Virus record (IMG/VR): IMGVR_UViG_3300001336_000003 | Location: 64,001-99,425 of that record | Source: a virus | Lineage: Duplodnaviria > Heunggongvirae > Uroviricota > Caudoviricetes | DNA length: 35,425 nucleotides | Strand: one strand, 5' to 3' | Shown here: one piece after another, positions 427 to 33,926 of the stretch | Numbering within the stretch: the stretch's first letter is position 1 | How the letters are laid out: each line of letters begins with the position of its first letter | Made by a program: the position numbers and the translations under genes | Notes under the pieces: generated by a model | Told to the model about the DNA's origin: nothing | Database searches by the model: none | The model's input: only the letters and a program-made list of their open reading frames with translations

Positions 427-888
427 TCAAAAAAGTGCAGACCACGGAAATTTTGTTATGATAAGCATGATGACTGCAGACACGCCTAAGACATACCATC
501 TCCAGTTTTCAAGTGTGCGGATACGCTTATCTTGGTGGTCAATTTTTTTCCCTAGTGCTTCATGTGACTTGGTTATTGCATCTATGACTTCTTTATGGCG
601 TCTTTCGCGCTCTTGTTGAGCGGTAGTTTTCATATCTTCAAGTTTGGTATTCAAATCTTTACGAAACACAACCTCTTCTTCGTGATGTTTCATGAGCTTC
701 TCTTCTAAGCTAGATATTCTTCTTTCGTTATTTTCCAAGATATTTTCCTGAACTGCGACTGCTCTTAATATATCAGACATTTGCGATACTGATTGATCAA
801 CTTTCAAGAATGATCTTTCAATCAACTTAACGTCTTTTTTTATCAAGGCCACATCGGTTTTGATACTGTTAATTTCTTCCGTTGTCAT
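427..888 (-). CDS. Coiled-coil protein with C-terminal transmembrane helix (XhlA/holin-like), last gene of the lysis cluster
   Basis: Long heptad-rich region, then RIRTLENWRWYVLGVSAVIMLII; overlaps the upstream holin-like gene. Confidence 0.45.
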   Translation of the reverse strand: MTTEEINSIKTDVALIKKDVKLIERSFLKVDQSVSQMSDILRAVAVQENILENNERRISSLEEKLMKHHEEEVVFRKDLNTKLEDMKTTAQQERERRHKEVIDAITKSHEALGKKIDHQDKRIRTLENWRWYVLGVSAVIMLIITKFPWSALF

Positions 889-1168
889 TGTCGCCTTCCT
901 GATAATCCGTTTCTAGCCTTTTTAATTTTTCTTGACCTCTTGTGAAGGCACTAATACCCAAAACTGCACCCATAGCAGCATGAAAAATTCCACCCGCAAT
1001 CAATGTCAAAGGTGTCCATTGTATAGCTACACTGCCCGAACCCCAAACTTGAATAAGACTCCAAAAAATTGGTGCCACCATAAAATCAAATAATATTATC
1101 AGCATGTATACCACAGCCATCATTGGTCGCCAATAAGAATGAAGCCATTCGTCTGGTCTACTTTTCAT
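869..1168 (-). CDS. Putative holin (GTA 3TM-holin-like)
   Basis: YWRPMMAVVYMLIILFDF...FHAAMGAVLGISAFTRGQEK; two or more hydrophobic segments; directly after the spanins. Confidence 0.65.
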   Translation of the reverse strand: MKSRPDEWLHSYWRPMMAVVYMLIILFDFMVAPIFWSLIQVWGSGSVAIQWTPLTLIAGGIFHAAMGAVLGISAFTRGQEKLKRLETDYQEGDNDNGRN

Positions 1169-1182
1169 GGTTTATTTATCCT

Positions 1183-1530
1183 TTAACGAAATTGTCTTTC
1201 GTATATTGCGATTATGCGCTGTTGTTGTTCAATCAATGCTCTTACATCAGATAGATTCAACGCGATGTTTTCATAACCATCTGTAGTAACTGCGAACAAG
1301 ACTTTTTCGCCTTGGATATTTGCAAAGACTTCTTCAATGTTTTCTGGTGTTACAACAATCCAACTGACAGTCCTTAAATCCAATTGATCCACTCTAGGAA
1401 CAATTGGTGCAGGTCTAGGAACTTGAACTGTTCTGATTTCTACAGGTGTTACGGGTTGGACTGGAGGTGTGGATGCACATGCAGCAACAAAAAGTAAAGC
1501 AGGTAGTATAAAATATTTCATCATTTTCAA
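1183..1530 (-). CDS. o-spanin-like outer-membrane lipoprotein (Rz1-like)
   Basis: Signal peptide with lipobox LFVAA-C, Pro-rich linker, C-terminal helix; ATGA overlap with the upstream i-spanin. Confidence 0.72.
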   Translation of the reverse strand: MKMMKYFILPALLFVAACASTPPVQPVTPVEIRTVQVPRPAPIVPRVDQLDLRTVSWIVVTPENIEEVFANIQGEKVLFAVTTDGYENIALNLSDVRALIEQQQRIIAIYERQFR

Positions 1531-1997
1531 TCTACACTTTCAAATAGCCAAGGACATTCAGGGTTTGCTTCTCTAGAATTTCTAGCATTTATTTCCCTTT
1601 CAGTAAGTGGCGAACCAGATAAAATTTCAAAACACCTCATGGCGTTTTCAGATGCGCGATTGATTGTTCTTTCAACAAGTGTCGGTCTAGCAGCAGCCAA
1701 AGCGTCCAATTCATGTCTACCTAATCTTTCGCGCAATTCATGATTTTCCATACGAATTACTTGAAATTCGTTTTCTAGTTGTGTGTAGTTTTGTCTGTTT
1801 TCTTCATGTAGATTTTGAAGTTCGTCAATCGTTTCTAGGTTTTCAGTGTTGGCGTGTAACAATTGGCCGTTGTTCACAACCAATGTAGCATTGGCTTGCG
1901 TCAAAGCTTCAATTCGCGTTTGAGTGGTGGTGTAATAATAGTATACACCACCACTTAATAACGCTATTAGAATACCTATGAAAATCCAAGATTTCAT
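1527..1997 (-). CDS. i-spanin-like inner-membrane protein (Rz-like)
   Basis: N-terminal TM (WIFIGILIALLSGGVYYYY), long coiled coil, two C-terminal Cys; coupled to the lipoprotein gene. Confidence 0.72.
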   Translation of the reverse strand: MKSWIFIGILIALLSGGVYYYYTTTQTRIEALTQANATLVVNNGQLLHANTENLETIDELQNLHEENRQNYTQLENEFQVIRMENHELRERLGRHELDALAAARPTLVERTINRASENAMRCFEILSGSPLTEREINARNSREANPECPWLFESVD

Positions 1998-2002
1998 CTG
2001 AA

Positions 2003-2704
2003 TTAACGGTTATTTCTCTTCTTTATAGTATCCATGATTTGTTTTCTCATTTTTATTCTTTTATTAACGTCAATATCTGTCATATTATTTAGAACTTTCA
2101 TCACTGCTTGTTGCATATCACTTGCTTGGTCTTTCTTAACCATTGTGTTAGCCTTAGATATTATAGCATCATAACTTTCATCAAGATCTTCATCATCAAG
2201 ATTTTCTTTAACCGAATGACCTTTAAGAAGCGCATGAATAAGTTTTTTTCCTTTAGAGGAAGTTGGCTTACCCTTTTTATCAGCAGACGAAATAGCCTTA
2301 TCAACTGCATCTTTGTTGTAAGACGCTTCATCAAGATCGTATTGTTCTTTAAACTCACCTTTTTTATAGTTTTCAAAATCGACTGCCGCTTTCATTGCAG
2401 CATTTTGTTTGAATCCTTTCTGTTGAAGGAATTTTGCTACTGCATTGACAGATGCAACTTTACCGACTTTGAAATTTGGGAAGTCTTTGTCCAATTGCTT
2501 CATCAAGTCTGTTTTGGTAGCTTCTTCAAGCTCTTCATCTTCATCATCTTCATCATCGTCATCATCATCGTCGTAATCGTCTTCTTCTTTCATTTTTGCT
2601 TCAAGAGCAAGTGCAACGCGATTGCGAAGTTCTTCTTCCAAAGCTTCTTTCAAACCTAGTGGGTTTTTTTCCACGGATTCTTTGATAATTTTTTGTAGTG
2701 ACAT
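2003..2704 (-). CDS. Head/prohead-core-like protein with gp67-like N-terminus and acidic tract
   Basis: Helical N-terminus followed by EEDDYDDDDDDDEDDEDEE, as in T4 gp67; repeated L(D/E)E(A/S) linkers; N-terminus paralogous to 4188-5150. Confidence 0.45.
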   Translation of the reverse strand: MSLQKIIKESVEKNPLGLKEALEEELRNRVALALEAKMKEEDDYDDDDDDDEDDEDEELEEATKTDLMKQLDKDFPNFKVGKVASVNAVAKFLQQKGFKQNAAMKAAVDFENYKKGEFKEQYDLDEASYNKDAVDKAISSADKKGKPTSSKGKKLIHALLKGHSVKENLDDEDLDESYDAIISKANTMVKKDQASDMQQAVMKVLNNMTDIDVNKRIKMRKQIMDTIKKRNNR

Positions 2705-2705
2705 A

Positions 2706-3590
2706 TTAGTTTCTCCTTAATAGTCTATCGATTTGTTGTTGGTTAAGAATACCATTTGCTGCAAATCTATTTATTCTTTGCCAAGACTTGACTGCAGCAT
2801 CGGTCACGTTTCCGAATATACCATCTGCGCCAATTTTCAAAGCAGCTTGAACTTGTCTTACCAAATCGCCCCTAGAACCTTTTTGTAACACAATGTCGGA
2901 AGGGGCTTTTTGTGTCACTGAATCGGTGATTTGTTCGTTAACGCTTGTTTTATTTCCCAACACCGATTTAGCAGCAACATATCTTTTTCTTCTATCTTCG
3001 ATACCAATGTCACCGCCATTGACTCTTTTAGACATACCATCAATATCATCGCGATCTGCAAAGCTTGCCAAATTGTTTTTCTGCCAAAACCAACATGCAG
3101 ATTCAAATGCACCTTCTTTTGTTCTTACATAATCAGCGGCTTTTTCTGGTGTCATGTCAATAGATTTGCCGAAACTGGTGAAATTGTTTCTGCCCGTCAA
3201 CTGCTTTATACCACCGCCACGAAATCTCCATCCATCACCTTCACGAACATTTCCTAATGCGCCAGACTTTGAACGAAATTCATCCATGTAAACATAGTTG
3301 GCTATTTTTTGTGGATTTCTGGCATATTCGGCTGCATTTCTTTTTGGTGGGGGGCCAAAGTATCTACCAAAAACGCGATTCAAAGCATCTGCACTATAGT
3401 TCAAATTTTCTTCAAGTGTGCGAAAATCGCCAGATTCATGTGAACATTGCGCCATAAATCCTGCTATTCGATTTGTTGTGTTTATTTGATATTTTTCAAA
3501 AAAACGAATCGCTATTGGATACCATACTTCTGGTTCTTTGTTGGTAGGTATCATTCTTCTGAATTGTTCTAGTGTTGTCATATCGTTCAC
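2706..3590 (-). CDS. Endolysin: glycoside hydrolase family 19 domain plus C-terminal peptidoglycan-binding domain
   Basis: IAGFMAQCSHESGDFRTLEENLNYS, GDGWRFRGGGIKQLTGRNN (GH19) and LQKGSRGDLVRQVQAALKIGADGIFG (PG_binding_1). Confidence 0.9.
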   Translation of the reverse strand: MNDMTTLEQFRRMIPTNKEPEVWYPIAIRFFEKYQINTTNRIAGFMAQCSHESGDFRTLEENLNYSADALNRVFGRYFGPPPKRNAAEYARNPQKIANYVYMDEFRSKSGALGNVREGDGWRFRGGGIKQLTGRNNFTSFGKSIDMTPEKAADYVRTKEGAFESACWFWQKNNLASFADRDDIDGMSKRVNGGDIGIEDRRKRYVAAKSVLGNKTSVNEQITDSVTQKAPSDIVLQKGSRGDLVRQVQAALKIGADGIFGNVTDAAVKSWQRINRFAANGILNQQQIDRLLRRN

Positions 3591-4147
3591 CCTTTAATGT
3601 TTGCGGAACCTATTATGTCTCTAAGTCTTTTCTTGCCGTCTTTTGTTCTTGACTTGTGACGTCTCATTTGTGTTCGATTTAGACCTAGTTCCCCTTGTGG
3701 GCCTACACCTAATCCTGCGATGTTTCCAGAACCTACATTCATTGTAGGAACTTCTTCATTTTTTACCTTGACAACACTTTCATCTAGTGTATAATCGAGG
3801 TATCTCGAAAAAGATTCTATAGATTCATATATAGAATCGTCCGATACATTTTCTGTGAGCATTGTGTCATTTGAAAAATGATTCCATTCGCGAATGAGAT
3901 ATAGTGCGGCCATGTAAGACGCGAGTCTTGTCTGGCCACCAGGGACTTTTTCAATCAACTTTTTTATGTTCAATATCATCAAGTCATAGATACCAAAAGC
4001 ATTTTTTTCTTCTCTAGTCGCCAAAGACTTTCTCTTTTTTAATACGTTACCGCGTTCATCAATTATGCCTAGCTTGAACGCCTCCCAATCTTTGAAAGGC
4101 GTAGCTAGTCTTCTAACGAACTGGTATACGAGATACAAATCTAGCAT
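3587..4147 (-). CDS. Conserved T4-superfamily hypothetical protein
   Basis: DLYLVYQFVRRLATPFKDWEAFKLGIIDERG and EEVPTMNVGSGNIAGLG resemble motifs recurrent in marine T4-like phage proteins; good SD (AAGGA). Confidence 0.7.
   Translation of the reverse strand: MLDLYLVYQFVRRLATPFKDWEAFKLGIIDERGNVLKKRKSLATREEKNAFGIYDLMILNIKKLIEKVPGGQTRLASYMAALYLIREWNHFSNDTMLTENVSDDSIYESIESFSRYLDYTLDESVVKVKNEEVPTMNVGSGNIAGLGVGPQGELGLNRTQMRRHKSRTKDGKKRLRDIIGSANIKG
3768..3795 (+). promoter_or_regulatory. Candidate antisense sigma70-type promoter inside a late gene
   Basis: Plus strand TTGACA (3768-3773), 16-nt spacer, TATAAT (3790-3795). No sense gene lies downstream on this strand. Confidence 0.35.
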
Positions 4148-4187
4148 TTACGTTTCCTTATTTAAGGTTGACACTGAAATAAATTTA

Positions 4188-5150
4188 TTATGTCTCACTT
4201 AAATCTTTTAACACGTCTTCAAGATTGTGATACGGGCCTTTATGCGAGTTTTTTGTTTTTATATGAAAATAACCACTTTTATCTTTGACGACCTTTGTAC
4301 CATCTGCTTTTTTAGTAAGTATTTGTATTATTTTATTCAAAGTGGATTCATTCAAAGACTCATTAACTTCTTTAGTGTAGTAAATTTCTACACTGTCGTC
4401 TTTGTATGAACTGCTATCAGACTTCCATTTTGCATAAAATTGGGTTGGTTGGTTCAACTTAACCCAATCTTTTACTGCTGCAAGTGTGGACTTACCTTTA
4501 GCGCCCGCGTAACCTTTTTTAGCTTTTCCCATGAATTCTTTGACTTTTTTCATAGAATCCAACTGTCTTCCAAAAGGTTGATTTAGGAATTCATTATCGA
4601 TTCCATCAACATTCACGGCATAGCTGAAACCACCTGAACTACCAAAAGCTGGTTTGTCTTTCTTGGCTTCAAGCAAATCAACTGACTCTTTTGCCAATTG
4701 GAATCCAGCATTTTTCATGATGTTTTGCAATCCACCAACTTGTGCTGGTGTGAATGACTTGTTCTTTGCATAGAAGTCAACAAGACCCTTACCAAATTCT
4801 TTTGTCTTTGCATCTTTTGCATTGCTTGCCAACTTCTTTGCAGCAGCGAGAACTTCCGCATCTGACATTTTGGCTTCATCAAGCTTAACTGACTCTTTCT
4901 TCATAGCTTTAGCAATAGCTTGGCGGCGCTTGTGTAGATATTCGTCGGATGAATCAACATCGCCGTCATTGTCGATATCTTTATCTTCACGATCTTCAAA
5001 GTCGCCTTTCAAAGCGTCTGGATTAACTTTGTCAAGCTTTTTCGCTTCCAAAGCAAGAGCAATTCTTTCCATTATTACTTCTTCAAAGACTTGCTTTAAG
5101 CCCAATGGGTTCTTTTCGATGGATTCGTTTATAATTTGTTTGATAGTCAT
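4188..5150 (-). CDS. Modular head/internal protein, N-terminus paralogous to 2003-2704
   Basis: MTIKQIINESIEKNPLGLKQVFEEVIMERIALALEAK; contains the DKDIDNDGDVDSSDEYLHKRRQAI motif; modules separated by LDEA, LLEA and LNES. Confidence 0.6.
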   Translation of the reverse strand: MTIKQIINESIEKNPLGLKQVFEEVIMERIALALEAKKLDKVNPDALKGDFEDREDKDIDNDGDVDSSDEYLHKRRQAIAKAMKKESVKLDEAKMSDAEVLAAAKKLASNAKDAKTKEFGKGLVDFYAKNKSFTPAQVGGLQNIMKNAGFQLAKESVDLLEAKKDKPAFGSSGGFSYAVNVDGIDNEFLNQPFGRQLDSMKKVKEFMGKAKKGYAGAKGKSTLAAVKDWVKLNQPTQFYAKWKSDSSSYKDDSVEIYYTKEVNESLNESTLNKIIQILTKKADGTKVVKDKSGYFHIKTKNSHKGPYHNLEDVLKDLSET

Positions 5151-5151
5151 T

Positions 5152-5526
5152 TCATATCTCCTTGAGTTTTGATACTATTTTTTCGTTGGACTCTATATCA
5201 TTAGTATGTATAACAATTCCCTCATATTCCACTTTTTCTGGCAGGTAGTTTAAAAAATCTATGAATGGTTTGAGGCATTCGTGATAATCTTTCATCTTAA
5301 AAAATAGCATATCTGTTGCGCTTTTGCCGAAAGTGTTATAGATAATAATGATATGATTGAGAATCAACCTCTCTTTCAAATCATCATCTGAAGAATATCT
5401 ATTAAAAAGCTTTCGTATGTATTGAAATCTTTTCAGATCTTCTTCAAATTCTGATATATCATGACAGTGTGGATTGTCATAATGTTTCATAGCATACTGT
5501 AGAAAGGTTGATTCATCTAATCTCAT
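5152..5526 (-). CDS. Conserved T4-superfamily hypothetical protein
   Basis: FLQYAMKHYDNPHC...EFEEDLKRFQYIRKLF...LKERLILNHIII, a family recognisable from cyanophage-like T4s. Confidence 0.75.
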   Translation of the reverse strand: MRLDESTFLQYAMKHYDNPHCHDISEFEEDLKRFQYIRKLFNRYSSDDDLKERLILNHIIIIYNTFGKSATDMLFFKMKDYHECLKPFIDFLNYLPEKVEYEGIVIHTNDIESNEKIVSKLKEI

Positions 5527-5527
5527 A

Positions 5528-5962
5528 TCAGGTCTTCATAGCAACCAATGTTTCGACTTTACGTCTTGTGTTGCCATTTTGATCAATGTAGGTTTTCGAT
5601 GTTGTCCAACCTGGTGAACGAATTCCAAGTGCTCTTGCCGAAGAATTTTGTGCTTCTGCTGTTGAAATCAATGCGGTGTCAGCAGTGGCGGTTTCAAGCG
5701 GAAGATACTTAGGAACTTGGCTATATGTAACATCTTCGGCTGTATAATCTGTTACAGCAACTGGTTGAATTTCCATTTCTGTGTTGGAAACAATTGCAAC
5801 AACGCGATAACGATCTTCTGTCAAAACGTCAAACGCAACAACATCACCTACAGAAAGTTCTTCTGTGAAAAGTGTATTGGTCCCTGTTACAGTTGACGCA
5901 TCTTCTGATACGGTAACTGTGCCTGTTAGTTCTTCTTCGTATAGTTTACCCCATAGTGGCAT
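5528..5962 (-). CDS. Putative virion (head decoration-like) structural protein
   Basis: MPLWG N-terminus and PGW...YIDQNGNTRRKVETLVAM C-terminus, with a Thr/Val-rich beta insert; typical of T4-like virion proteins. Confidence 0.55.
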   Translation of the reverse strand: MPLWGKLYEEELTGTVTVSEDASTVTGTNTLFTEELSVGDVVAFDVLTEDRYRVVAIVSNTEMEIQPVAVTDYTAEDVTYSQVPKYLPLETATADTALISTAEAQNSSARALGIRSPGWTTSKTYIDQNGNTRRKVETLVAMKT

Positions 5963-5994
5963 TTTTGTTCTCCTTGTATTATGGGTTGTGGTAT

Positions 5995-6002
5995 TATTTA
6001 TT
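5995..6002 (-). promoter_or_regulatory. Possible T4-type late promoter variant (AATAAATA)
   Basis: 7/8 match to TATAAATA, 33 nt upstream of the ATG at 5962. Confidence 0.4.
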
Positions 6003-6894
6003 GTATATACATGTTCAATTCGTAACGACCTTCGTCGTAATATACTTGCATGTTAAGCTTCTGTTTCACGTCTTTGCCGTTCTTCATCAAATTTATAGAA
6101 TACATGTTGGTCTTACCACTACTAGGTTTTCTTGGACCCATAGCTACTTTTCTATCCCAATCATCATCGTCAACTTGGAAGCCTCTTTTTTCTGCTACAT
6201 CTATTGCGTGTTGGACAGCAGATGAAAACGTCTTGTGGTTTATTGTGTATCCACTAGCTTCATCCAAATCGAAATCTTCTTTCACAGAAATCTTTTCAAC
6301 CGACATGAAATCTGGTAGATCATCAAGCATAATAGCATAACCACCACCTAGTGAACCATCTGCTTTTACCATATGGGCTTTGCGCCCATCTTTAGTTTTC
6401 GTAATCTTACGAATCATCATAGTTTGCGACTCTGCTGAGAGTCTACCCAATCTACCTCCAAGAGTAATGCCGTTTTTACCCCCTACCACGTCTTGTCTCG
6501 CGGATTTAGTTATTTTCACAACATCACCTGTTTTAAGACTACTATCAGCTTTTTTACTTTCAATTATTTCCAAAGATTCCATCTTCAAACCACGGCTAAT
6601 AACACGATTTCTTGCTAATGCACTAACAAAAGGAACATCTGATTTTGCAAGTGTCTTGAGTTGATTGTCTGGAAGTCCATTTAGCATAGTAATCAATTTT
6701 TTATAAGCTTCACTATCTGGATCGATTTTTTTGATTCCACCATACGCCTTTTTCAACGCTTCAATATGCGCCTTTGAAAATGATGCTTCTGATAGAATGA
6801 ATTGCGTTTCTTCTATCAGTTCCTTGTGTTCATACACTGGTTCACTTTCTTTAGCCTGTCTTTCCAAGTATTCCATTAGAATTTTCTTGAACAT
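5998..6894 (-). CDS. Modular hypothetical (probable internal/ejected) protein
   Basis: Three apparent modules starting after ILSEA, EIIES and DLDEA. Confidence 0.6.
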   Translation of the reverse strand: MFKKILMEYLERQAKESEPVYEHKELIEETQFILSEASFSKAHIEALKKAYGGIKKIDPDSEAYKKLITMLNGLPDNQLKTLAKSDVPFVSALARNRVISRGLKMESLEIIESKKADSSLKTGDVVKITKSARQDVVGGKNGITLGGRLGRLSAESQTMMIRKITKTKDGRKAHMVKADGSLGGGYAIMLDDLPDFMSVEKISVKEDFDLDEASGYTINHKTFSSAVQHAIDVAEKRGFQVDDDDWDRKVAMGPRKPSSGKTNMYSINLMKNGKDVKQKLNMQVYYDEGRYELNMYIQ

Positions 6895-6896
6895 TT

Positions 6897-7178
6897 CTAC
6901 CCCACTTCGGTTATCTTAATTGTTAATTTTTCGTCACTAGGAATTATTCTATGATAAATCATCTTTTGGATGTGTAATACGTCACCCTTATTTATAAGAA
7001 AAGGCAACTGATCGTCAAATTGGAACTTCCAATTACAACCTTCTAAGACTTCTACTATTCTATCTTCGTAATCCCTGTGCCAGACATATTCATCGTTTTC
7101 CGCAACTTGTGGGTCAAATGTTCTTATCCAAGAACAATCGTCTATTTTTGTATCGATGTAAGGTTTTCTATTTTCCAT
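6897..7178 (-). CDS. Small cupin-like protein
   Basis: VWHRDYEDRIVEVLEG...WKFQFDD...KGDVLHIQKMIYHRII matches the two cupin motifs. Confidence 0.5.
   Translation of the reverse strand: MENRKPYIDTKIDDCSWIRTFDPQVAENDEYVWHRDYEDRIVEVLEGCNWKFQFDDQLPFLINKGDVLHIQKMIYHRIIPSDEKLTIKITEVG
6989..6996 (-). promoter_or_regulatory. T4-type late promoter TATAAATA
   Basis: Exact consensus, about 95 nt upstream of the ATG at 6894. Confidence 0.55.
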
Positions 7179-7185
7179 TTCACCA

Positions 7186-7713
7186 TCACCAAAAGAATTT
7201 TCCGCCCCCGCTAAGACCTACCTTAGAAGAAAAATGCGGTAAGCGACACGCCCAATAACCAGGCTTTGTCTTGTCTGTTTTATTTGCACAATCATGTCTT
7301 GCAGCAAAAGACTTCCTTGCTTCGGGGTCATTTATTTTTGCAGTAAGTCCAGTAGTATCGCCAAATTCGACTTTTATCACATTGCCCTTGTCATTCTTTA
7401 CATAGACGTAATATTTTTTGTTGCCACCCCTTTTAGGGCTATTAAGTTCGACATCTTTTTCTTCTTCTAACGGAAAATCCAACGGAACTTTTTCACCTTC
7501 GTAGTAATCTGATTCCCCTATATCCGATTCCATAATATCTTGTTCAAACCAGTCATGACAATGATATTCGCCACTTTCATATAGACTTCTTGCATGACGA
7601 AACAACGCATAATTCATGTCAGAATGTGGTCTGAACACATTTTCGTATAGTGGTGTATCAGATTCGATATGTTGTTGCATAGCGCGATATAATGTGTATT
7701 GGGAAAACTTCAT
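7186..7713 (-). CDS. Conserved phage hypothetical protein
   Basis: C-terminal KKYYVYVKNDKGNVIKVEFGD...ARKSFAARHDC...KTKPGYWAC motif, seen in large phages; CTS-like start MKFSQY. Confidence 0.65.
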   Translation of the reverse strand: MKFSQYTLYRAMQQHIESDTPLYENVFRPHSDMNYALFRHARSLYESGEYHCHDWFEQDIMESDIGESDYYEGEKVPLDFPLEEEKDVELNSPKRGGNKKYYVYVKNDKGNVIKVEFGDTTGLTAKINDPEARKSFAARHDCANKTDKTKPGYWACRLPHFSSKVGLSGGGKFFW

Positions 7714-8432
7714 GATGCAAACCTTTTAGCGCCGCCTCTTAAATTGGAAACAAGTTTTCTAACGTTGAATGTCTTTGCAAGCCCGTATATCAATGATACG
7801 ATGAACAATGCAGTTTGTGGGCCAGGCCATGGGAAACTTAGGAAAGAACCAGTAATGAACAATGTTAGTAGTTTTACACCATCTGGTCCTGTGAATATGT
7901 CTGTTAATGAAAAGTTACCTAGAAGTGCGGAAATCAATGTTGATTGGTCAAAATCGTAATCGAAGTCGCCAGTGAAGCTCATATTTAACCATATGTAAAG
8001 AAGAATCGCGCCAACTGCTATGCCAACCAATCTTTTTGTCTTAGGATGCCTTTTCAAGAATTCATCCAAGTCTTTGATTTTTTCTGTTGTCCACTTTACA
8101 ACTTTTGTTTCGGCTATGTATTCTGCAATAGTTGTTTGAAGATCGCGGTAGTATTTAAACCCCTTGCGAACAAGATCAAAAAGTCTTTTGACGGAAAACC
8201 CTATTTTCTTGAAGAATTCGAACACGCCTTTATTCTTCAGAAGTTCGGCAATGTCTTTGATTCCTATCTTGGCTTTTTCTGCCAAGTCTTTGATGAAATC
8301 GTAGTATTTTTTAAGCTTTCCAGTTATACCAGACAAGAATTCGTATAGCGAATCGTCTTCATGTAAACGAATCGCTTCCATGTATAATTCATAGTCTCTA
8401 TCTTGCATATAACCAGAAAAGTTCTTCATCAA
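7710..8432 (-). CDS. Hypothetical protein with C-terminal membrane segments
   Basis: Amphipathic Lys-rich helices followed by LVGIAVGAILLYIWL and two further hydrophobic stretches; ATGA-coupled to both neighbours. Confidence 0.6.
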   Translation of the reverse strand: MMKNFSGYMQDRDYELYMEAIRLHEDDSLYEFLSGITGKLKKYYDFIKDLAEKAKIGIKDIAELLKNKGVFEFFKKIGFSVKRLFDLVRKGFKYYRDLQTTIAEYIAETKVVKWTTEKIKDLDEFLKRHPKTKRLVGIAVGAILLYIWLNMSFTGDFDYDFDQSTLISALLGNFSLTDIFTGPDGVKLLTLFITGSFLSFPWPGPQTALFIVSLIYGLAKTFNVRKLVSNLRGGAKRFAS

Positions 8433-8719
8433 TAGTTTCCGTCAAACCGATTGAATGGTGAATCGTAATCTGGTTCATCATCATATTCTGACTCATCATC
8501 CATATTCGATTGCATGAACGTGTATACAGATGTAAGATAATCGGCTGCAAGTGTTATTTTGCTAAGATTCCATCTTTCCAATTCTGCGCCATTTTCTAGC
8601 ATTTCAAGAATTTTACCAGAAGTGTAACACGCAATCTTCAATTCGCGAATTGACATGTCGTCGTGTTCTTCTTCATAACCTTCTTTAAGGCCATTCTTAA
8701 ATTCTTTATAGGACTTCAT
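8429..8719 (-). CDS. Conserved T4-superfamily hypothetical protein
   Basis: CTS-like start MKSYKEF; ELERWNLSKITLAADYL motif. Confidence 0.65.
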   Translation of the reverse strand: MKSYKEFKNGLKEGYEEEHDDMSIRELKIACYTSGKILEMLENGAELERWNLSKITLAADYLTSVYTFMQSNMDDESEYDDEPDYDSPFNRFDGNY

Positions 8720-8733
8720 TTTCTTTTCCTTTA

Positions 8734-10293
8734 TTACATATTTGGTAGGAAGTCTTTCCAGTTTTCCAAACCAGAACGATACAAATCTTCTGCCGCCACA
8801 TAAGTTCTCATGCTTGGCTCTTTTAGTAATCCCTTGATATTTTGACCTCTAAGAAACTCGAATATTTCTTCCTTGATGTTCAAAGGCACATTTTTATTCC
8901 CTATGTCGGGTAGAATGCTCTTTAATCTTTGGAAAATCTGATCGTCTGTCATTGTCATATCAATCTTAGCTGATCTGTTTAGAACCGCAGAATCGAACTT
9001 GTCAACTGTCAAGTTAGAAATGAATATGATACGACCTTCAAAGTTAAATTCAGAAGGCAACTTTATTTTTGTGTCTTCTGGATTTTCATCCATCTTTGCA
9101 TCAATAGAATCGTTATATTCTTCTTTGGCGTCATCAGTCATTTTGGACACGTTAACCGTTCTAGGCGAAACCCAAGAAATCGTTCTTTCGTCATAGGAAT
9201 CCAGCGCCGCTTTAAGTAGGTTGGCTGCTTCTGCATCGCCCCAAACAGAATCGGTATCATCAAATACAAGCAAACCACCTTTTCTGTGCATGAATAGTGT
9301 TTGATATAGGGCAGAGGTTGTAATCTTACCTTTGATTATATACCAATCTTTATTCTTAACCAAACCTTCACCTTTTATGGTTTCGGTGACGACATATGTT
9401 TTGCCAATACCAGGCCCGCCATAAATGATAAGTGAATTTCTTGCGCCACGTGACACAATTTGAACAAGACCCTTCATCAAACCGAATTTGGTATCGGGAT
9501 TTTCCATTTCTTTCTTCACGTCTGGATTTTCTATTGCTTTTGCAACAGTCTTGAGCATTTCTTCTGCTTTTTTATCACCCTTGACACTCAAAAACTGTTT
9601 TGTTTCGGGGTCTTGTGAAGTGATCTTCAAGTAATAGATAGGCTCCACACTTTTAGCGGGCTTTGTCGTGTCGCCCGACACGTCGCCAGATAGAAGCTTT
9701 GACAAATCAAATTTCGTGTTAGTGCCTTTTGTACCAGAAACTTTTGTGCCTGTTCTTACGATTGTTGGGATCTGAAAATCATTTGCTAATGCAATATCAG
9801 ACAATACGTTCCAAGTCACAGAATTCAATTGTACACCCATAGGAAGATTTTTCGATACCAATTCAGCAAAATCTGCTGGTGATATTCTTTTTGCTTCTGT
9901 CAAGAACGCGCTTTCTGTCAACTCTGGATATAGCTCTACAGTTCCCGCAGATGGTGCTTTGAAAATGTCTATAAGCTTTTTACCAGCTTGCATAAGACCA
10001 AGGCCAATCAAATCAATTGTGAAGTCACCTTTTTTACCAAGCTTAAAGTCTTTCCAAAAAGTTATAGATTCGATAGCCCCGCCAATATAATTCAAGCGAA
10101 TGGCTTTCTTTCTGTCATAGAAATAAAGGATGCCTAGTCCACTTTTTATCTCGCTGTAACCTCTAGGGCCACCAAAACGAAAAAGCTTTGTGCTAAGATT
10201 TTTTTCAGCTATTCTTTTGAATATGTCAGCAACTTTATCAAGATTGCTTCTTGAAACTTTTGCTTCAGTTAAATACTGATTGAAGCCTATCAT
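8734..10293 (-). CDS. P-loop (AAA+-like) ATPase with N-terminal accessory domains
   Basis: Walker A IIYGGPGIGKT, Walker B LLVFDD, sensor-1-like IIFISN, Arg-finger-like AVLNRS. Confidence 0.8.
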   Translation of the reverse strand: MIGFNQYLTEAKVSRSNLDKVADIFKRIAEKNLSTKLFRFGGPRGYSEIKSGLGILYFYDRKKAIRLNYIGGAIESITFWKDFKLGKKGDFTIDLIGLGLMQAGKKLIDIFKAPSAGTVELYPELTESAFLTEAKRISPADFAELVSKNLPMGVQLNSVTWNVLSDIALANDFQIPTIVRTGTKVSGTKGTNTKFDLSKLLSGDVSGDTTKPAKSVEPIYYLKITSQDPETKQFLSVKGDKKAEEMLKTVAKAIENPDVKKEMENPDTKFGLMKGLVQIVSRGARNSLIIYGGPGIGKTYVVTETIKGEGLVKNKDWYIIKGKITTSALYQTLFMHRKGGLLVFDDTDSVWGDAEAANLLKAALDSYDERTISWVSPRTVNVSKMTDDAKEEYNDSIDAKMDENPEDTKIKLPSEFNFEGRIIFISNLTVDKFDSAVLNRSAKIDMTMTDDQIFQRLKSILPDIGNKNVPLNIKEEIFEFLRGQNIKGLLKEPSMRTYVAAEDLYRSGLENWKDFLPNM

Positions 10294-10295
10294 TT

Positions 10296-12785
10296 TTATA
10301 CCCTCACTATTGGATTTGGTGTTTTAAAATCTTTTTTACGCATTATAGTTTTTGCAACAACGCGAAGTTCGTCATTTCTTCTGTCATATTCTACTGCAAT
10401 TGGCATGTTCAAGTTAGACTGAAGGTCTTTAATAACAGCTTCCGTGTCAGTGAATTTGGATAGCGTTTTACCATCTGCTTTGTTTTTGTTGTATATTTTC
10501 TGAATCATCTGAGCAAGTTCGCGCAAGTTGATGCAAGGCTTATTTCTTTCGTCAGACATTCTTTCTCTGAAATGCTTAGTAAAGTCAAAATTGACACCAA
10601 ACTTTTCAAATAGCTTATCAACTAAAGTTTCGAATTGGCGCATTTGTCCCATAGTTATTATAGGGCATGTTTCGTCATTTTCGGATATCACATCAAATGT
10701 TTCGTATAGATACGACTCTTTTATGCCTACGTTTTTCACTTTTGGATATTTATTGATCAATTCGATTAGCTGTTTTGCTTTCATTGTGGCGCGAAGAACA
10801 GGCATTTTAATGCCAAGATTCATTGCCGCCAACCAACGATGGTGCCCATCAATGACATAATCATCAGCACTTATGATGATTGCCTTTGGCTGTTCTTTAG
10901 ATTTTGACATTAGTTCTATTTGCGTTTCAATCTTGTCTTTGCTAAATTCGCCTTGTGACGCCTTCAAGCTTTTTGGATCAACAGTTATTTTTTGTATGTT
11001 GACGTTGTTATCTTTCAGATATTTTCTGAAATCGTCCATGTCTTTAGATGACACTTGAGGCATATCTTCTCTTTTGATGCCCAATGTGTCTTTTTTCTTT
11101 GGAATATTAACCATGAATTCACGCAAAGATTTTGGTTGATTCTGGCCACCAAACGCTTTAGAAAATGACTCGTTAACCCCACCAATTTTAGAAACGTCTT
11201 GGTGTTTCACGATATGAAGTTTCCCATCATCTTCGCGTATTCTCATACGACCTGTTGCTTCGTCTGTTCCGACAAAAGTCCCTTCAATATCTTCTTGTGG
11301 GTCTGTAACGGTAATTCTTGTGAATTTAACTCTATCGCCACGTCTAACATCGGCGTTTAATGCGACTTCTTGAAGTGGCGTATCTTTCTTGTATATTTTT
11401 ACAAGACTATCCGTTCCCTGTTCGCGGTTGCTAGGATCTTCTTTACCTTCCGAAAACCCATATTTTTTCTTCAATGCGGAAACACGCGCATCTGATAGTT
11501 TGGGTTTTTCAGTTTTGCCGAAACGTTCTGCATATTTCTTCATCAGTTCTCTGGAAGACATGTTGACGCCTGCAGCACCACTAATTTCCCATGCGATATC
11601 GCCTATATCAACGCCTTTGGTAACATGCTTGTGCATCGCATTCAAAACTTTATCTATTAGCGTTTCTTCATCAAGTTGCCCAAAATCAATTTCTTCACCG
11701 AAAAGATGAAAAGATTCACTCTTACCACTATGTTTTGCCCATAGGTCAGCATCGGCAGTTGTTCTTGTTTTTCCGCCTGTAGCAAAGCTATTGACCCTTG
11801 CCATACCCCATTGTTCTGGTGTTGTCCTAGGTCTGTGTCCCGTTCTCCATGCCGCCATGCCACGGTCATAAACCTTCTTCAAAATACCATAAGAAATGCC
11901 TGTTTCTTCTGCTTTGTTTTTTAACGCCTTATCAGAATTTTCAAAAAGAGACTCGACACTTTCCATCAATGCGTATGAATCTTCGATGAAGTCTTCCGCG
12001 CTTTCGTTCAACTTTTTGTCTTTGAAACGCTTGAATCTTCTATCAATCTTCACCTTGTTTTCCTTGGTGAACATTTGATGGTAACGCTTTGTATAATTAG
12101 AAGGCTTTGTTTTGGCTTCGGCATCACCAGGTGCTGGTTTATATGCACTTGCGTCATCATCATCTTTTGCTGCACCTTTCTTAAAATGTGCATCGCGCTT
12201 TTCTTTGGTCGATTTGGTAAGACCTGAAAAATACTTTTTTGGCTGTGAGCCTTCTCTATCAGAAATATCAGAATCTTGTGGTGCGCTTCTTTCGAAGAAC
12301 ATTTCAAAGCGTTCATTTATACTTTCGGTCTTAGGTTTTCCTGCGCTCGAAAGCCTTTTCAATTCTGCTTGTCTGATTTGTGGAAGTTGCCTTGTTGCAA
12401 TTCTATCTATAGCTACAGGTGATATTTTTGCAACTCTTTTATCAAGAGCAATTTTTTCGGCTGGCGTCATTTCCGAATAGGACTTGTTTTTCATCAATCT
12501 TTGACGAATGATGTTTCTAGCTTTTTTCCTAGCTCGCATCTTCAACTTTTCTGGTGACGCTTTTCTTTTCTTTGCGCGCTTTCTTGCTGCCGCTATCTTA
12601 GTTTTGAAACGGCGCATGACCATTCCACGTTTGCGTCTTTGTGCAATCGTTAAAGGTTGTCTCACTTCATCCAGTTCTTCAATGTCGTCTGATTCTTCAT
12701 TCATATTCGGTTCCAATTCTATATACTTTGAACTGTCGTGAACTTTTGTTTTGCCACGCTTGGTTTTTTTAGTCTTTTCTTCCAT
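10296..12785 (-). CDS. Large multidomain late protein: gp68-like basic region, DUF5824-like modules, ParB-like domain, C-terminal HFRER module
   Basis: LTIAQRRKRGMVMRRFKTKIAAARKRA; LKKVYDRGMAAWRTGHRP...WGMARVNSF; LKASQGEFS...YVIDGHHRW; FDFTKHFRERMSDERN. Confidence 0.65.
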   Translation of the reverse strand: MEEKTKKTKRGKTKVHDSSKYIELEPNMNEESDDIEELDEVRQPLTIAQRRKRGMVMRRFKTKIAAARKRAKKRKASPEKLKMRARKKARNIIRQRLMKNKSYSEMTPAEKIALDKRVAKISPVAIDRIATRQLPQIRQAELKRLSSAGKPKTESINERFEMFFERSAPQDSDISDREGSQPKKYFSGLTKSTKEKRDAHFKKGAAKDDDDASAYKPAPGDAEAKTKPSNYTKRYHQMFTKENKVKIDRRFKRFKDKKLNESAEDFIEDSYALMESVESLFENSDKALKNKAEETGISYGILKKVYDRGMAAWRTGHRPRTTPEQWGMARVNSFATGGKTRTTADADLWAKHSGKSESFHLFGEEIDFGQLDEETLIDKVLNAMHKHVTKGVDIGDIAWEISGAAGVNMSSRELMKKYAERFGKTEKPKLSDARVSALKKKYGFSEGKEDPSNREQGTDSLVKIYKKDTPLQEVALNADVRRGDRVKFTRITVTDPQEDIEGTFVGTDEATGRMRIREDDGKLHIVKHQDVSKIGGVNESFSKAFGGQNQPKSLREFMVNIPKKKDTLGIKREDMPQVSSKDMDDFRKYLKDNNVNIQKITVDPKSLKASQGEFSKDKIETQIELMSKSKEQPKAIIISADDYVIDGHHRWLAAMNLGIKMPVLRATMKAKQLIELINKYPKVKNVGIKESYLYETFDVISENDETCPIITMGQMRQFETLVDKLFEKFGVNFDFTKHFRERMSDERNKPCINLRELAQMIQKIYNKNKADGKTLSKFTDTEAVIKDLQSNLNMPIAVEYDRRNDELRVVAKTIMRKKDFKTPNPIVRV

Positions 12786-12817: not shown

Positions 12818-12825
12818 TATTTATG
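12818..12825 (-). promoter_or_regulatory. T4-type late promoter variant CATAAATA
   Basis: 7/8 match in the intergenic gap, 33 nt upstream of the ATG at 12785. Confidence 0.6.
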
Positions 12826-12836
12826 TTTTTTTCGCA

Positions 12837-13391
12837 TTAGCTTCTTAGAATAAAATTGTCCTTAGAAAAGAAGTTATAGAAACAATATTTCTTTTCAGTT
12901 GGGAAATCGTGCGGACATTGTTTTTCTTTTTTTCTTTCGGGATCTGTGAATGTCGGTGTTTCTTTCCAATCGAACCCATATACGGTCACGCTTTCAGGAT
13001 CGCATTTGCTTATATAATCTAAAGCCATCAAACCAGTTGTTGGGTTGTTGTGTTTTCCAGCTAGTTTTTTGAGTGGCGCGTAGTATTCGTCTGGATATAC
13101 AAAATCTACTAAAGCCTTATTGATTGCATTTCTACCTTGGTGCCCCATGTGCATAAGCTTTGCATTTGTTTTTCTGAAATGATTTTTATACTCAACGGTG
13201 TTCCAGAACATCCAAATGTCTGTTCTTTTGCCATGCGATTTCGCTGCATTTGTTTCTGTAAACAACATAGCCGCTTTATTCAGTCTAACAACAACGTCAT
13301 GGGAATCTATTTCTTCACCGTATTCTCTTTCAAATAAGTAAGTCGCGTTTCCTACTACCGCGACTGTTTTACCTTCAAACCAATGTTTCAT
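12837..13391 (-). CDS. GT29 (sialyltransferase-like) glycosyltransferase
   Basis: Sialylmotif L (VAVVGN..YLF....GEEIDSHDVVVRLN), S-like (PTTGLMALDYISKCDPESVTVYGFD) and VS-like (HDFPTE). Confidence 0.8.
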   Translation of the reverse strand: MKHWFEGKTVAVVGNATYLFEREYGEEIDSHDVVVRLNKAAMLFTETNAAKSHGKRTDIWMFWNTVEYKNHFRKTNAKLMHMGHQGRNAINKALVDFVYPDEYYAPLKKLAGKHNNPTTGLMALDYISKCDPESVTVYGFDWKETPTFTDPERKKEKQCPHDFPTEKKYCFYNFFSKDNFILRS

Positions 13392-13395
13392 ATCG

Positions 13396-14172
13396 TTAAT
13401 CTCTTAATGTAAAATTATTCTTATTGAGCAATGCTTTTCTTGCATACGCTTCTTCTAACGCAAAATTGTGCATACATCTTACGTCAAAACGGCACTTAAT
13501 ATCCTTATCAAATAAATTCAATTCTGAAAAGGTTGGTGTCTTTTTGAAGTCCATGCCATATATATCAACACTAGATGGTTCGCATTGTGACAACCATTCA
13601 AGAACAGTAATGCCTATACTTGGTCTTATGACTCTTCTTTCTTTTGTTTCTTTGATAATTTTGAAACCTCTTCTTGTATAGCGGGTTTCGTATGCTTCAA
13701 ATAAGCTTTGATTTCTCAAAAAAAGGTGTTGACTTCTTTTTTCATTGCTTTCTTGATATTTAGAAGCAGATGCCACTTTAACATTCAACGCTTCAAATTT
13801 GCTATTGTTGTATGTGAAATCGCAATGATCTAATGACGTTTTTCTATGGCCATTTATGACAGCTTGTATTTTGTAAATCCCATCATCATTGAAGAATGCT
13901 TCGCGCATTTTTTCATATTCTGGTTCATTAAGCGTTCTTTTAACAAATGCACCTATAGCCCAAAAAGCCCACACGTCCATTTTTTTGCCATGAGTCAAAG
14001 TGACGTTATTTTCGCAATATAACGGCGCGGGTTTATTAAATCTGATAACTATGTCATGACTGTCTATTTCCATACCATAGAGTTTGTCAAAAAGTGACAG
14101 TGAATTCCCGACCACCGCCACTGACTTGTTTTGAACTAATTTTTCAAAACTTACTTCTTTATGTGATACCAT
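13396..14172 (-). CDS. GT29 (sialyltransferase-like) glycosyltransferase, paralog of the adjacent gene
   Basis: VAVVGNSLSLF...GMEIDSHDIVIRFNKPAP; PSIGITVLEWLSQCEPSSVDIYGMD; HNFALE. Confidence 0.78.
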   Translation of the reverse strand: MVSHKEVSFEKLVQNKSVAVVGNSLSLFDKLYGMEIDSHDIVIRFNKPAPLYCENNVTLTHGKKMDVWAFWAIGAFVKRTLNEPEYEKMREAFFNDDGIYKIQAVINGHRKTSLDHCDFTYNNSKFEALNVKVASASKYQESNEKRSQHLFLRNQSLFEAYETRYTRRGFKIIKETKERRVIRPSIGITVLEWLSQCEPSSVDIYGMDFKKTPTFSELNLFDKDIKCRFDVRCMHNFALEEAYARKALLNKNNFTLRD

Positions 14173-33233: not shown

Positions 33234-33926
33234 TCACTTATTTATCTGGTTCCACATTTCCAAATCTTCTGGCGTATTAATTTCAATACCATCGAAGTCT
33301 ACCTCAACAACTGATATGGAAACGCCATTCTGTATCCATCTAAGTTGTTCAAGTTTTTCAATCTGTTCTTCTGGATACACCTTCAATTTCCCATAATTTT
33401 TCAAAGCACCTTTTGTGTATCCATATATACCCAAATGATGTGAACCGTATGCCAAAGAAGAACGGCAGAACCAATGCGCTAAAGAATCTGTGTGTATCAT
33501 TTTTACAGCATTTTGGTCTTGTTGTTTTTCAGGCGTCATTTTAGTATATGCGGTCACGATTCCACCACTAACATAATCATAGCCATATCTATCAAGCCAT
33601 GACGCTATTTTTTCTATAATTTCTGGTGTGATATCTGGCATGTCACCTTGGACATTTATGAACTTGGTATAGTTAAATTTGTCGATAACTTCACCACATC
33701 GGCTAGTGCCATTTTCATGATTTTCGCTTGTTATTATAGAATTGGGAACCGCACTTGCTATTCTATCATCATCAGTTAAAACGTATGTGTCTAATCCAGT
33801 TGACGCGCAAATATCATAAACGCGGCGTATAAGTGGTTTGCCGCCAACGTCTGATAGCATTTTTGCGGGGAAACGTGTGCTAGCGTATCTTGCTGGAATC
33901 AGAATGGCTATGTCTTTTGTATTCAT
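33234..33926 (-). CDS. kdsB: CMP-Kdo synthetase (3-deoxy-manno-octulosonate cytidylyltransferase)
   Basis: IPARYASTRFPAK, NVQGDMP, HLGIYGY, EKLEQLRW, EINTPED. Start moved to 33926. Confidence 0.93.
   Translation of the reverse strand: MNTKDIAILIPARYASTRFPAKMLSDVGGKPLIRRVYDICASTGLDTYVLTDDDRIASAVPNSIITSENHENGTSRCGEVIDKFNYTKFINVQGDMPDITPEIIEKIASWLDRYGYDYVSGGIVTAYTKMTPEKQQDQNAVKMIHTDSLAHWFCRSSLAYGSHHLGIYGYTKGALKNYGKLKVYPEEQIEKLEQLRWIQNGVSISVVEVDFDGIEINTPEDLEMWNQINK
33239..33246 (-). promoter_or_regulatory. Late promoter variant GATAAATA upstream of alt
   Basis: 7/8 match, 31 nt upstream of the alt ATG. Confidence 0.5.

Follow-up and report, generated by a model that had tools for sequence, protein, structure and literature searches.

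Predicted capsid cargo polyproteins with prohead-protease-type joints in an uncultured marine T4-like phage

A gene block in an uncultured marine phage raises the question of why unrelated small domains should be joined, again and again, by the same short motif. The DNA analysed here (the window, 35,425 nucleotides) covers bases 64001-99425 of a 99.4-kb contig of a T4-like (Kyanoviridae-type) marine phage (IMG/VR record IMGVR_UViG_3300001336_000003), the completeness of which is about 47% by CheckV. The block lies at window positions 2003-12785 and consists of 13 close-packed minus-strand open reading frames (ORFs) with 3551 residues in total. A first-pass annotation had read the whole block as late genes for polyproteins that are targeted to the capsid, cut by the prohead protease and co-injected with the DNA. 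The analysis below points to probable capsid-targeted, cleavable cargo for a part of the block.

The joint motif and its specificity

All the joint strings named by the first-pass annotation were located in the block (Table 1; a slash within a sequence marks a predicted junction). The 13 block proteins contain 24 copies of the motif [LI].E[AS], compared with 4.6-4.7 expected from within-protein shuffles that preserve the composition (5.2-fold, z 8.6-9.2). The remaining 100 minus-strand proteins of the contig contain 26 copies versus 24.7 expected. When Glu at P1 was replaced in the motif, the counts in the block fell to 0.59-fold for [LI].D[AS], 1.08-fold for [LI].Q[AS] and 1.11-fold for [LI].K[AS], and the reversed and register-shifted motifs gave 1.07-fold and 0.66-fold. 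The same was observed in 268 database relatives, where [LI].E[AS] was seen 793 times versus 192 expected (4.1-fold) and the form with Asp at P1 reached 0.61-fold. The giant-phage-like form [VAG].E[AS] was not enriched (1.29-fold in the block and 1.22-fold in the relatives). T4 gp21 cuts at Leu or Ile-x-Glu, typically at a Glu-Ala bond, and Asp at P1 blocks processing (PMC9026906). The excess, which is specific to Glu at P1, matches these rules of T4 gp21. Many joints also share the extended context K-E-x-x-(D or K)-L-x-E/(A or S), and a longer context, KE-S-V-x-L-x-E-A, recurs among them.

Glu, Lys and Leu abound in the block proteins, and the excess might have arisen by chance or from the composition of acidic proteins with much Leu. 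This candidate was rejected by the composition-keeping shuffles (z of about 9 for the block, about 57 for the relatives) and by the other-P1, reversed and shifted controls, all of which stay near or below 1. We regard it as extremely improbable.

The positions of the joints relative to folded domains were determined with AlphaFold models of the 829-aa and 320-aa proteins, which were built from alignments of colinear relatives. The 829-aa model has a mean predicted local distance difference test score (pLDDT) of 72.5, and its confident domains are parted by segments of pLDDT <50 at residues 27-42, 259-262, 356-360, 444-449, 467-477, 536-555 and 687-698. These linkers hold the candidate P1 residues E40, E261, E357, E446, E473, E539 and E690, which are seven of the eight junction Glu of this protein. 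In the 320-aa model, the low-confidence segments 83-92, 150-163 and 262-266 hold E92, E161 and E264, all three of its junction Glu. The first-pass annotation had named motifs inside folded domains as a finding that would speak against it; ten of the 11 junction Glu are located at pLDDT <50, and the proposal passed this check.

An exhaustive phmmer search returned 6,908 cluster representatives of 189-1,317 aa for the 829-aa protein, with the same modules at differing positions; 449 of them match at E <=1e-30. The 320-aa protein has 3,422 relatives, each covering 16-89% of the query. With both queries, homology starts and ends cluster at the candidate sites; 40 homology starts, for example, fall at residues 691-710 of the 829-aa protein. 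Whole modules are gained or missing among the relatives with seams that coincide with candidate sites, and modules recur in many orders and contexts. In 150 relatives, breakpoints within 8 residues of (L or I)xE(A or S) were found at 2.2-fold expectation (per-protein Wilcoxon 2.6e-24), whereas control motifs gave 0.85-1.3-fold. Module shuffling at the linkers, which the first-pass annotation had proposed to look for among related phages, is observed. Windows upstream of module starts are enriched in the motif and contain a second recurring form, (I, V or L)-N-E/(A or S)-F.

Conservation across relatives follows the same residues. The E40 joint has its Glu in 30/30 sequences and Leu or Ile at P3 in 28/30. 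The E92 joint keeps its Glu in 29/30, its Leu in 28/30 and its P1' Ala in 24/30, and the Glu column is the sole one with >=90% conservation in the alignment of 320-aa relatives (A2). For the Glu of E161 the figure is 23/26. P2 is variable at all three joints. These three best-sampled joints are patterned as a selected site would be.

At the DNA level, likeness among joints is short and mostly absent. A 29-nt direct repeat (family D11, 79% identity) was found at window positions 4663-4691 and 4870-4898, where it encodes the linkers KESVDLLEAK and KESVKLDEAK of the 320-aa gene, and it may provide recombination microhomology.

Leaders and links to the phage head

The T4 capsid targeting sequence (CTS) is MKTYQEFIAE (PMC8442874), and experiments on it assign targeting to residues 4 and 7 and processing to residues 8 and 10 (PMC9026906). 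MIGFNQYLTE/A of the 519-aa protein is an exact fit to this template, and MKSYKEF..LKE/G and M-MKNFSGY fit positions 4 and 7. All the CTS-like starts proposed by the first-pass annotation (MKSYKEF, MKFSQY, MMKNFSGY, MIGFNQYLTEA and MKSFVDY) are present, although MKFSQY is one residue out of the T4 register. The pattern M-x-x-aromatic-x-x-aromatic was found in 6/137 contig proteins versus 1.6 expected, and four of the six matches belong to three adjacent block genes and the Alt-like gene. The full CTS template was found in 18/270 relatives versus 0.09 expected, for example as MKTFKQLIAE/V.

Two further leader types do not fit the T4 template. The K-rich type KYIELEPx(L, M or I)xE/ is present in at least 56 proteins, including the 829-aa protein. 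The helical type IIKE..NPLGLKEA..ALALEAK is present in 31 proteins, including the 233-aa and 320-aa proteins, whose leaders are 62% identical to each other. The leader types are exchangeable ahead of one same cytidylyltransferase module. In the cultured phages Melnitz (L003, 8197-10149) and HTVC008M (L004, 7804-9594), the genes annotated as 'cytidyltransferase' carry the CTS-like leaders MKKFSEIIEA/R and MKTLKELL directly before an HxGH nucleotidyltransferase domain, which suggests a capsid-packaged nucleotidyltransferase in these two phages.

The helical leader and acidic tract of the 233-aa protein resemble T4 gp67 in layout. Pfam and PHROG scans of the helical leaders gave no match, and hhalign of the helical-leader profile was weak both against T4 gp67 (8 columns, E 0.16) and against a gp67-like ORF of locus L002 (38 columns in register, pairwise P 0.003), which itself matches phrog_1064 at 4.4e-5. 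On these values, non-significant for T4 gp67 and weak for L002, a gp67 relationship (PF17634, phrog_1064) is a tentative possibility at most. A likeness of the basic module (residues 41-150 of the 829-aa protein) to the basic half of gp68 was rejected (BLASTP E 0.55, no gp68 PHROG match).

The contig starts with a gp21-type prohead protease gene, followed by genes for a gp22-like scaffold and a gp23-like capsid protein. The protease (contig positions 289-729) matches Peptidase_S77 (PF03420) with 123 bits and E 4.2e-37, and it carries LTE/A near its N-terminus and LDE/A near its C-terminus; the capsid protein has LME/T at about residue 68. A direct fusion of a module to a protease of this type was found in metagenomic P0192, a PF03420 prohead protease in which the module at residues 162-258 of the 320-aa protein follows LFE/A (LAELFE/A) at the C-terminus. 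A protease 65% identical to P0192 is located in a canonical protease-scaffold-capsid cluster and has a different C-terminal tail. The C-terminal tail of the prohead protease appears, from these sequences, to be a variable cargo slot. In L002, the homolog of the 519-aa protein adjoins gp19-like (tail-tube) and gp20-like (portal) genes and retains both joints (LTEA/K and LQEA).

The protease, scaffold and capsid genes (contig C1:229-3442) are preceded by perfect copies of TATAAATA at a distance of 14-50 nt. In the window, exact TATAAATA is not enriched (4 versus 2.35 expected) and sigma-70 promoter matches were as frequent as expected. More informative was a relaxed NATAAATA scan of the DNA before gene starts, which found variants at -40 from the 829-aa gene and at -38 from the Alt-like gene (Table 1). 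The reading as late genes has partial support from this late-promoter-like core upstream of the first block gene, at a spacing near that of the Alt-like gene.

Modules and their free-standing counterparts

One of the identified modules is a ParB/Noc/sulfiredoxin-type domain at residues 540-690 of the 829-aa protein. It matches phrog_2859 at 7e-28 and ParB phrogs at 1e-4, its Foldseek matches are Noc, ParB and Srx at probability 0.8-0.99, and it is annotated as 'DarB-like antirestriction' in PEp14. It is of the DdrB type that characterises polyvalent proteins of phages (PMC5512222). The same protein has a Tudor/SH3-like barrel at residues 485-533, and further identified modules are a DUF5824-type helical domain, a basic helical protein and a DxDxDG module. 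The whole 829-aa model reached E of about 0.02-0.2 at best against the PDB in Foldseek, with consistent ParB/Noc and Tudor matches. For the 320-aa model, the matches from Foldseek against BFVD and from VIA-align were weak or generic, among them a three-helix bundle and a dsRBD-like or T7 Gp1.2-like domain (Z about 5). The first-pass annotation had considered an anti-defence role possible; the hints of an activity directed at the host are limited to the ParB/DdrB-type domain and to the Alt-like ADP-ribosyltransferase encoded nearby.

The P-loop ATPase part (about residues 225-515) of the 519-aa protein is a free-standing protein in T-even phages; what is normally a cytoplasmic ATPase of phages seems to have become capsid cargo here. 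The T-even homolog is encoded in the nrdC.10 region, where it is variously annotated as thioredoxin, hypothetical protein or NTP hydrolase. No peptidase family was found in the block proteins by Pfam or PHROG scans, and an embedded zincin-like metallopeptidase was not found.

Several modules that are fused in the block stand alone elsewhere. Residues 41-149 of the 829-aa protein correspond to a free-standing basic protein of 123-130 aa in HTVC008M and Melnitz, and ELDE/V of the 829-aa protein aligns column for column with the leader end LIE/R of the free-standing Melnitz_17 (MKKFSELTSELIE/R). The C-terminal module is found alone in Melnitz_31 (149 aa; the annotated ORF opens at TTG, LKTFLQF). 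The unit of ParB and C-terminal modules is free-standing in metagenomic P0043, P0054 and P0059, which start with MKKFKSFMRE/N, MKRFRTLLKE/A and MLKFSTYIQE/K, respectively, where the window has GVNE/S. The 175-aa protein is 52% identical to residues 473-650 of Melnitz_18, the C-terminal module of that 650-aa protein, and its HTVC008M counterpart, gp131, stands alone. Residues 206-296 of the 298-aa protein match residues 318-408 of Melnitz_20 with a conserved (M or L)DEA/ joint, which is kept despite different neighbours (KEDFDLDEA/SGY aligns with EKPEMDEA/KSSTGY). Residues 9-108 of the 298-aa protein match residues 199-296 of HTVC008M gp132, where LEQLDEA/ comes next, and residues 17-68 of the 96-aa protein match the interior of gp132. 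In Melnitz and HTVC008M, the modules are mostly single genes with leaders.

Window positions 4875-5039 (residues 38-92 of the 320-aa protein) encode a DKDIDNDGDVDSSD motif (DxDxDG, calcium-binding-like). This module is 65-72% identical in Melnitz_21 and HTVC008M gp133, and no other part of the chain comes near it in conservation.

Table 1. Candidate cargo proteins, their junctions and neighbouring features (window coordinates)
Feature	Coordinates	Strand	Details
829-aa mosaic protein	10296..12785	minus	Modules delimited by homology starts and ends and low-pLDDT linkers; joint strings ELDEV, KLNES, GVNES
829-aa protein, leader			Residues 1-40, K-rich; KYIELEPNMNE/E, then ELDE/V
829-aa protein, modules			Basic helical 41-165; middle 166-261; DUF5824-like helical 262-357; 358-446; Tudor/SH3-like barrel 447-539; ParB/Srx-like 540-690; C-terminal 691-829
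Junction LDE/V	12663..12674	minus	P1 Glu40, end of 829-aa leader
Junction VNE/S	11166..11177	minus	P1 Glu539, before ParB-like module; pLDDT-poor segment 536-555
Junction IKE/S	10713..10724	minus	P1 Glu690, before C-terminal module; pLDDT-poor segment 687-698
519-aa protein	8734..10293	minus	CTS MIGFNQYLTE/A, N-terminal domain, P-loop ATPase about 225-515; second junction LTE/S and LTE/A at E127 and E133; joint string FLTEA
96-aa acidic protein	8429..8719	minus	CTS-like start MKSYKEFKNGLKE/G
240-aa protein	7710..8432	minus	CTS-like from second Met (MKNFSGY); hydrophobic C-terminal segments; no internal junction motif
175-aa protein	7186..7713	minus	Start MKFSQY
298-aa three-module protein	5998..6894	minus	Junctions LSE/A (E36), IIE/S (E112), LDE/A (E212); joint strings ILSEA, DLDEA
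320-aa protein	4188..5150	minus	Leader 1-37 (IINES..NPLGLK..ALALEAK); modules DxDxDG 38-92, three-helix 93-161, alpha/beta 162-264, small alpha/beta 265-320; junctions LDE/A (E92), LLE/A (E161), VNE/S and LNE/S (E264, E268); joint strings KLDEA, DLLEA, SLNES
186-aa protein	3587..4147	minus	Weaker candidate; conserved N-terminal domain phrog_18642; IYE/S (E108), LDE/S (E123)
233-aa protein	2003..2704	minus	Helical leader and poly-acidic tract, then three modules of 50-65 aa; junctions LEE/A (E61), LDE/A (E126), LDE/S (E176); joint strings ELEEA, DLDEA, DLDES
Alt-like ADP-ribosyltransferase, 711 aa	31073..33208	minus	Outside block; start MKSFVDY...FFE/S; PF03496 1.1e-11
Late-promoter-like core CATAAATA	12818..12825	minus	40 nt upstream of 829-aa gene, in 51-nt intergenic gap
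Late-promoter-like core GATAAATA	33239-33246		38 nt upstream of Alt-like gene
GH19-like endolysin with PG_binding_1 domain	2706-3590	minus	Inside block; lysis cassette
i-spanin-like protein	1527-1997		N-terminal transmembrane segment and coiled coil; lysis cassette
o-spanin-like lipoprotein	1183-1530		LFVAAC lipobox; lysis cassette
GTA_holin_3TM-type holin	869-1168		Lysis cassette

The window also encodes T4-type UvsX, a gp41-like helicase and a gp32-like single-stranded DNA-binding protein. The block shares synteny with two cultured marine Kyanoviridae, Melnitz and HTVC008M, in which the corresponding region lies downstream of UvsX and helicase. The pelagimyophage literature knows this region just as hypervariable and as lying between replication and structural modules (PMC7029224). 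Neither megablast of the block against GenBank phages nor tblastn of the 320-aa protein against phages at 1e-3 gave a match. Downstream of the block are the endolysin, spanin-like and holin-like genes, and this lysis cassette (window 427-3590) follows it directly. Directly upstream (window 12837-14172) are two neighbouring paralogous GT29 glycosyltransferase-like genes; GT29, the sialyltransferase family, is unusual in phage.

Proposed mechanism, alternatives and known systems

About eight of the 13 genes would encode phage-head cargo. A short leader would dock each protein onto the assembling prohead core; it would be a T4-type CTS (aromatic at position 4, aromatic or hydrophobic at 7, Leu or Ile at 8 and Glu at 10), the K-rich KYIELEPxLxE or the helical type. 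Behind the leader, unrelated small domains would be strung by short flexible linkers bearing (L, I or V)-x-Glu/(Ala or Ser). The S77 protease, once activated inside the prohead, would remove the leader and cut the joints, and would thereby free separate small proteins, among them the basic helical protein, the ParB/DdrB-type domain, the Tudor-like barrel, the ATPase and many other domains. The pieces would remain in the head with the DNA and would then be ejected into the host. As the joints are self-contained separators that do not depend on the leader, recombination at them could add, drop or reorder modules, and would yield the vast combinatorial family seen in metagenomes. Packaging, cutting, retention, ejection and effector function are what we infer from the sequence patterns described above. 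We consider capsid targeting together with cutting by the prohead protease to be moderately probable, and place less confidence in the injection and effector roles of the modules. The mechanism in the first-pass annotation agrees with the type of protease, the gp21 specificity, the location of linkers and breakpoints and the free-standing versions led by a CTS. Its extension to the whole block is not supported: the endolysin and the DUF7207, 144-aa and 93-aa proteins probably do not belong to the system.

Several observations weigh against capsid-targeted, cleavable cargo. The block is located between replication and lysis genes, outside the head cluster. Five of its ORFs lack [LI].E[AS] (the endolysin at 2706-3590, and those at 5528-5962, 6897-7178, 7710-8432 and 8429-8719), and the DUF7207 protein (5152-5526) contains just one N-terminal copy (p 0.17). 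P3 is other than Leu or Ile at some joints (VNE, KSE and FSE), and E275 of the 829-aa protein is inside a predicted helix. Conservation was scored at three joints, the global MAFFT alignment of mosaic proteins being too gappy at five others. Internal joints are at no excess in Melnitz or HTVC008M proteins, so the polyprotein layout would be lineage-specific. Most modules have weak fold matches, and their effector roles are candidate roles. Finally, T4 core proteins are cut at many sites and their fragments mostly leave the head (PMC9026906, PMC5694885).

The last point leads to an alternative in which the block proteins are sacrificial, scaffold-like core components, which are loaded, cut and mostly expelled before packaging and serve assembly or size control. 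The T4 core proteins gp22, gp67 and gp68 provide the precedent for such expulsion (PMC9026906, PMC5694885), and two block proteins have the gp67-like layout of a helical leader and a poly-acidic tract, with the profile in register with the gp67-like ORF of L002. Such a role fits poorly with modules that are compact folds (ParB-like, ATPase and Tudor-like) and that are hypervariable between phages, unlike essential scaffold parts. The link to T4 gp67 is also non-significant, the link to gp68 failed, and the contig has its own gp22-like scaffold. We judge this alternative unlikely. The cutting itself would be absent if the proteins acted as intact multi-domain proteins in the cytoplasm and the joints were mere spacers that promote module exchange. 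The 29-nt repeat at two joints and the recurring KE-S-V-x-L-x-E-A context agree with such a recombination cassette, and polyvalent proteins are often delivered without cutting (PMC5512222). A plain spacer would, however, accept Asp, Gln or Lys at P1 and any residue at P3, yet the Glu form alone is enriched and Asp is depleted, and P3 and P1 are fixed while P2 is free. The same motif also closes the N-terminal leaders and flanks the protease, and DNA similarity among the joints is short and mostly absent. We rate the uncut cassette as slightly more doubtful again than the sacrificial core.

Of the known systems, the internal proteins (IPs) and Alt of T4 are the nearest in mechanism. Mullaney and Black in 1996 reportedly described a capsid targeting sequence and gp21 processing for the T4 internal proteins. 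IPI, IPII, IPIII and Alt have a CTS and are processed by gp21 (PMC9026906, PMC3012670). Here too, a leader of 10-20 residues has its key positions at 4, 7, 8 and 10 and ends in Leu or Ile-x-Glu, and its removal by the S77 protease is predicted; the cargo is of many kinds and hypervariable among related phages, and an Alt-like ADP-ribosyltransferase with the same leader is encoded in the genome. Each T4 IP is a small protein with a leader of its own (Alt is cut at its C-terminus as well), whereas several domains share one leader in the block proteins. Predicted internal protease sites, two extra leader types and a gene position between the replication and lysis modules are further differences. 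The resemblance to gp67 and gp68 concerns small core proteins cut at several Leu or Ile-x-Glu sites, and the helical N-terminus and poly-acidic tail of gp67 are like those of the 233-aa protein; the T4 proteins are conserved and essential, unlike the hypervariable chains of folded domains here.

In architecture, the block proteins resemble the polyvalent proteins, for which many effector-type domains, extreme shuffling, and predicted co-delivery with the DNA and processing were described (Iyer, Burroughs, Anand, de Souza and Aravind 2017, PMC5512222). Both have unrelated effector-type domains in one chain, shuffled architectures and the DdrB-type ParB domain. Unlike the polyvalent model, which has an embedded zincin-like metallopeptidase, the separators here would be sites for a prohead protease acting in trans, and the modules, at 50-150 aa, are far smaller. 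Head proteins of the giant phages phiKZ, 201phi2-1 and SPN3US are cut after Glu by gp21-related proteases (PMC5694885, PMC10052503). Cutting after Glu by a T4-related protease, which is predicted for the block, long propeptides with multiple sites and paralogous families are points in common. Their motif is S, A or G-x-E or A-x-E, whereas [VAG].E[AS] is not enriched here, and their cuts mainly trim propeptides. In mechanism the proposal thus follows T4 IPs and Alt (CTS and gp21), and in architecture it is comparable to polyvalent proteins. No paper on protease-jointed cargo polyproteins was found in a literature search.

A broader possibility, to which we give somewhat less than an even chance, is that plug-and-play loading is common to marine and other uncultured T4-like phages: with at least three interchangeable leaders and cleavable joints, any small domain could be appended, loaded, released and delivered with the genome. 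If so, the 6,908 and 3,422 relatives would be among the largest uncharacterised pools of injected phage effectors, and the joints would act as cleavage sites and recombination seams alike. The T4 paradigm of one leader and one protein would be widened to a combinatorial polyprotein format, and polyvalent proteins would gain a processing route besides the embedded metallopeptidase proposed in 2017. The hypervariable region of pelagimyophages and their relatives (PMC7029224) would be explained. The rule of a leader followed by L-x-E-A or L-x-E-S joints would predict capsid-borne proteins and their mature ends in uncultured T4-like phages, and would provide natural design rules for multi-cargo loading of T4-type capsids. 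Thousands of small, independently folded candidate early effectors would then be available to set against host defences.

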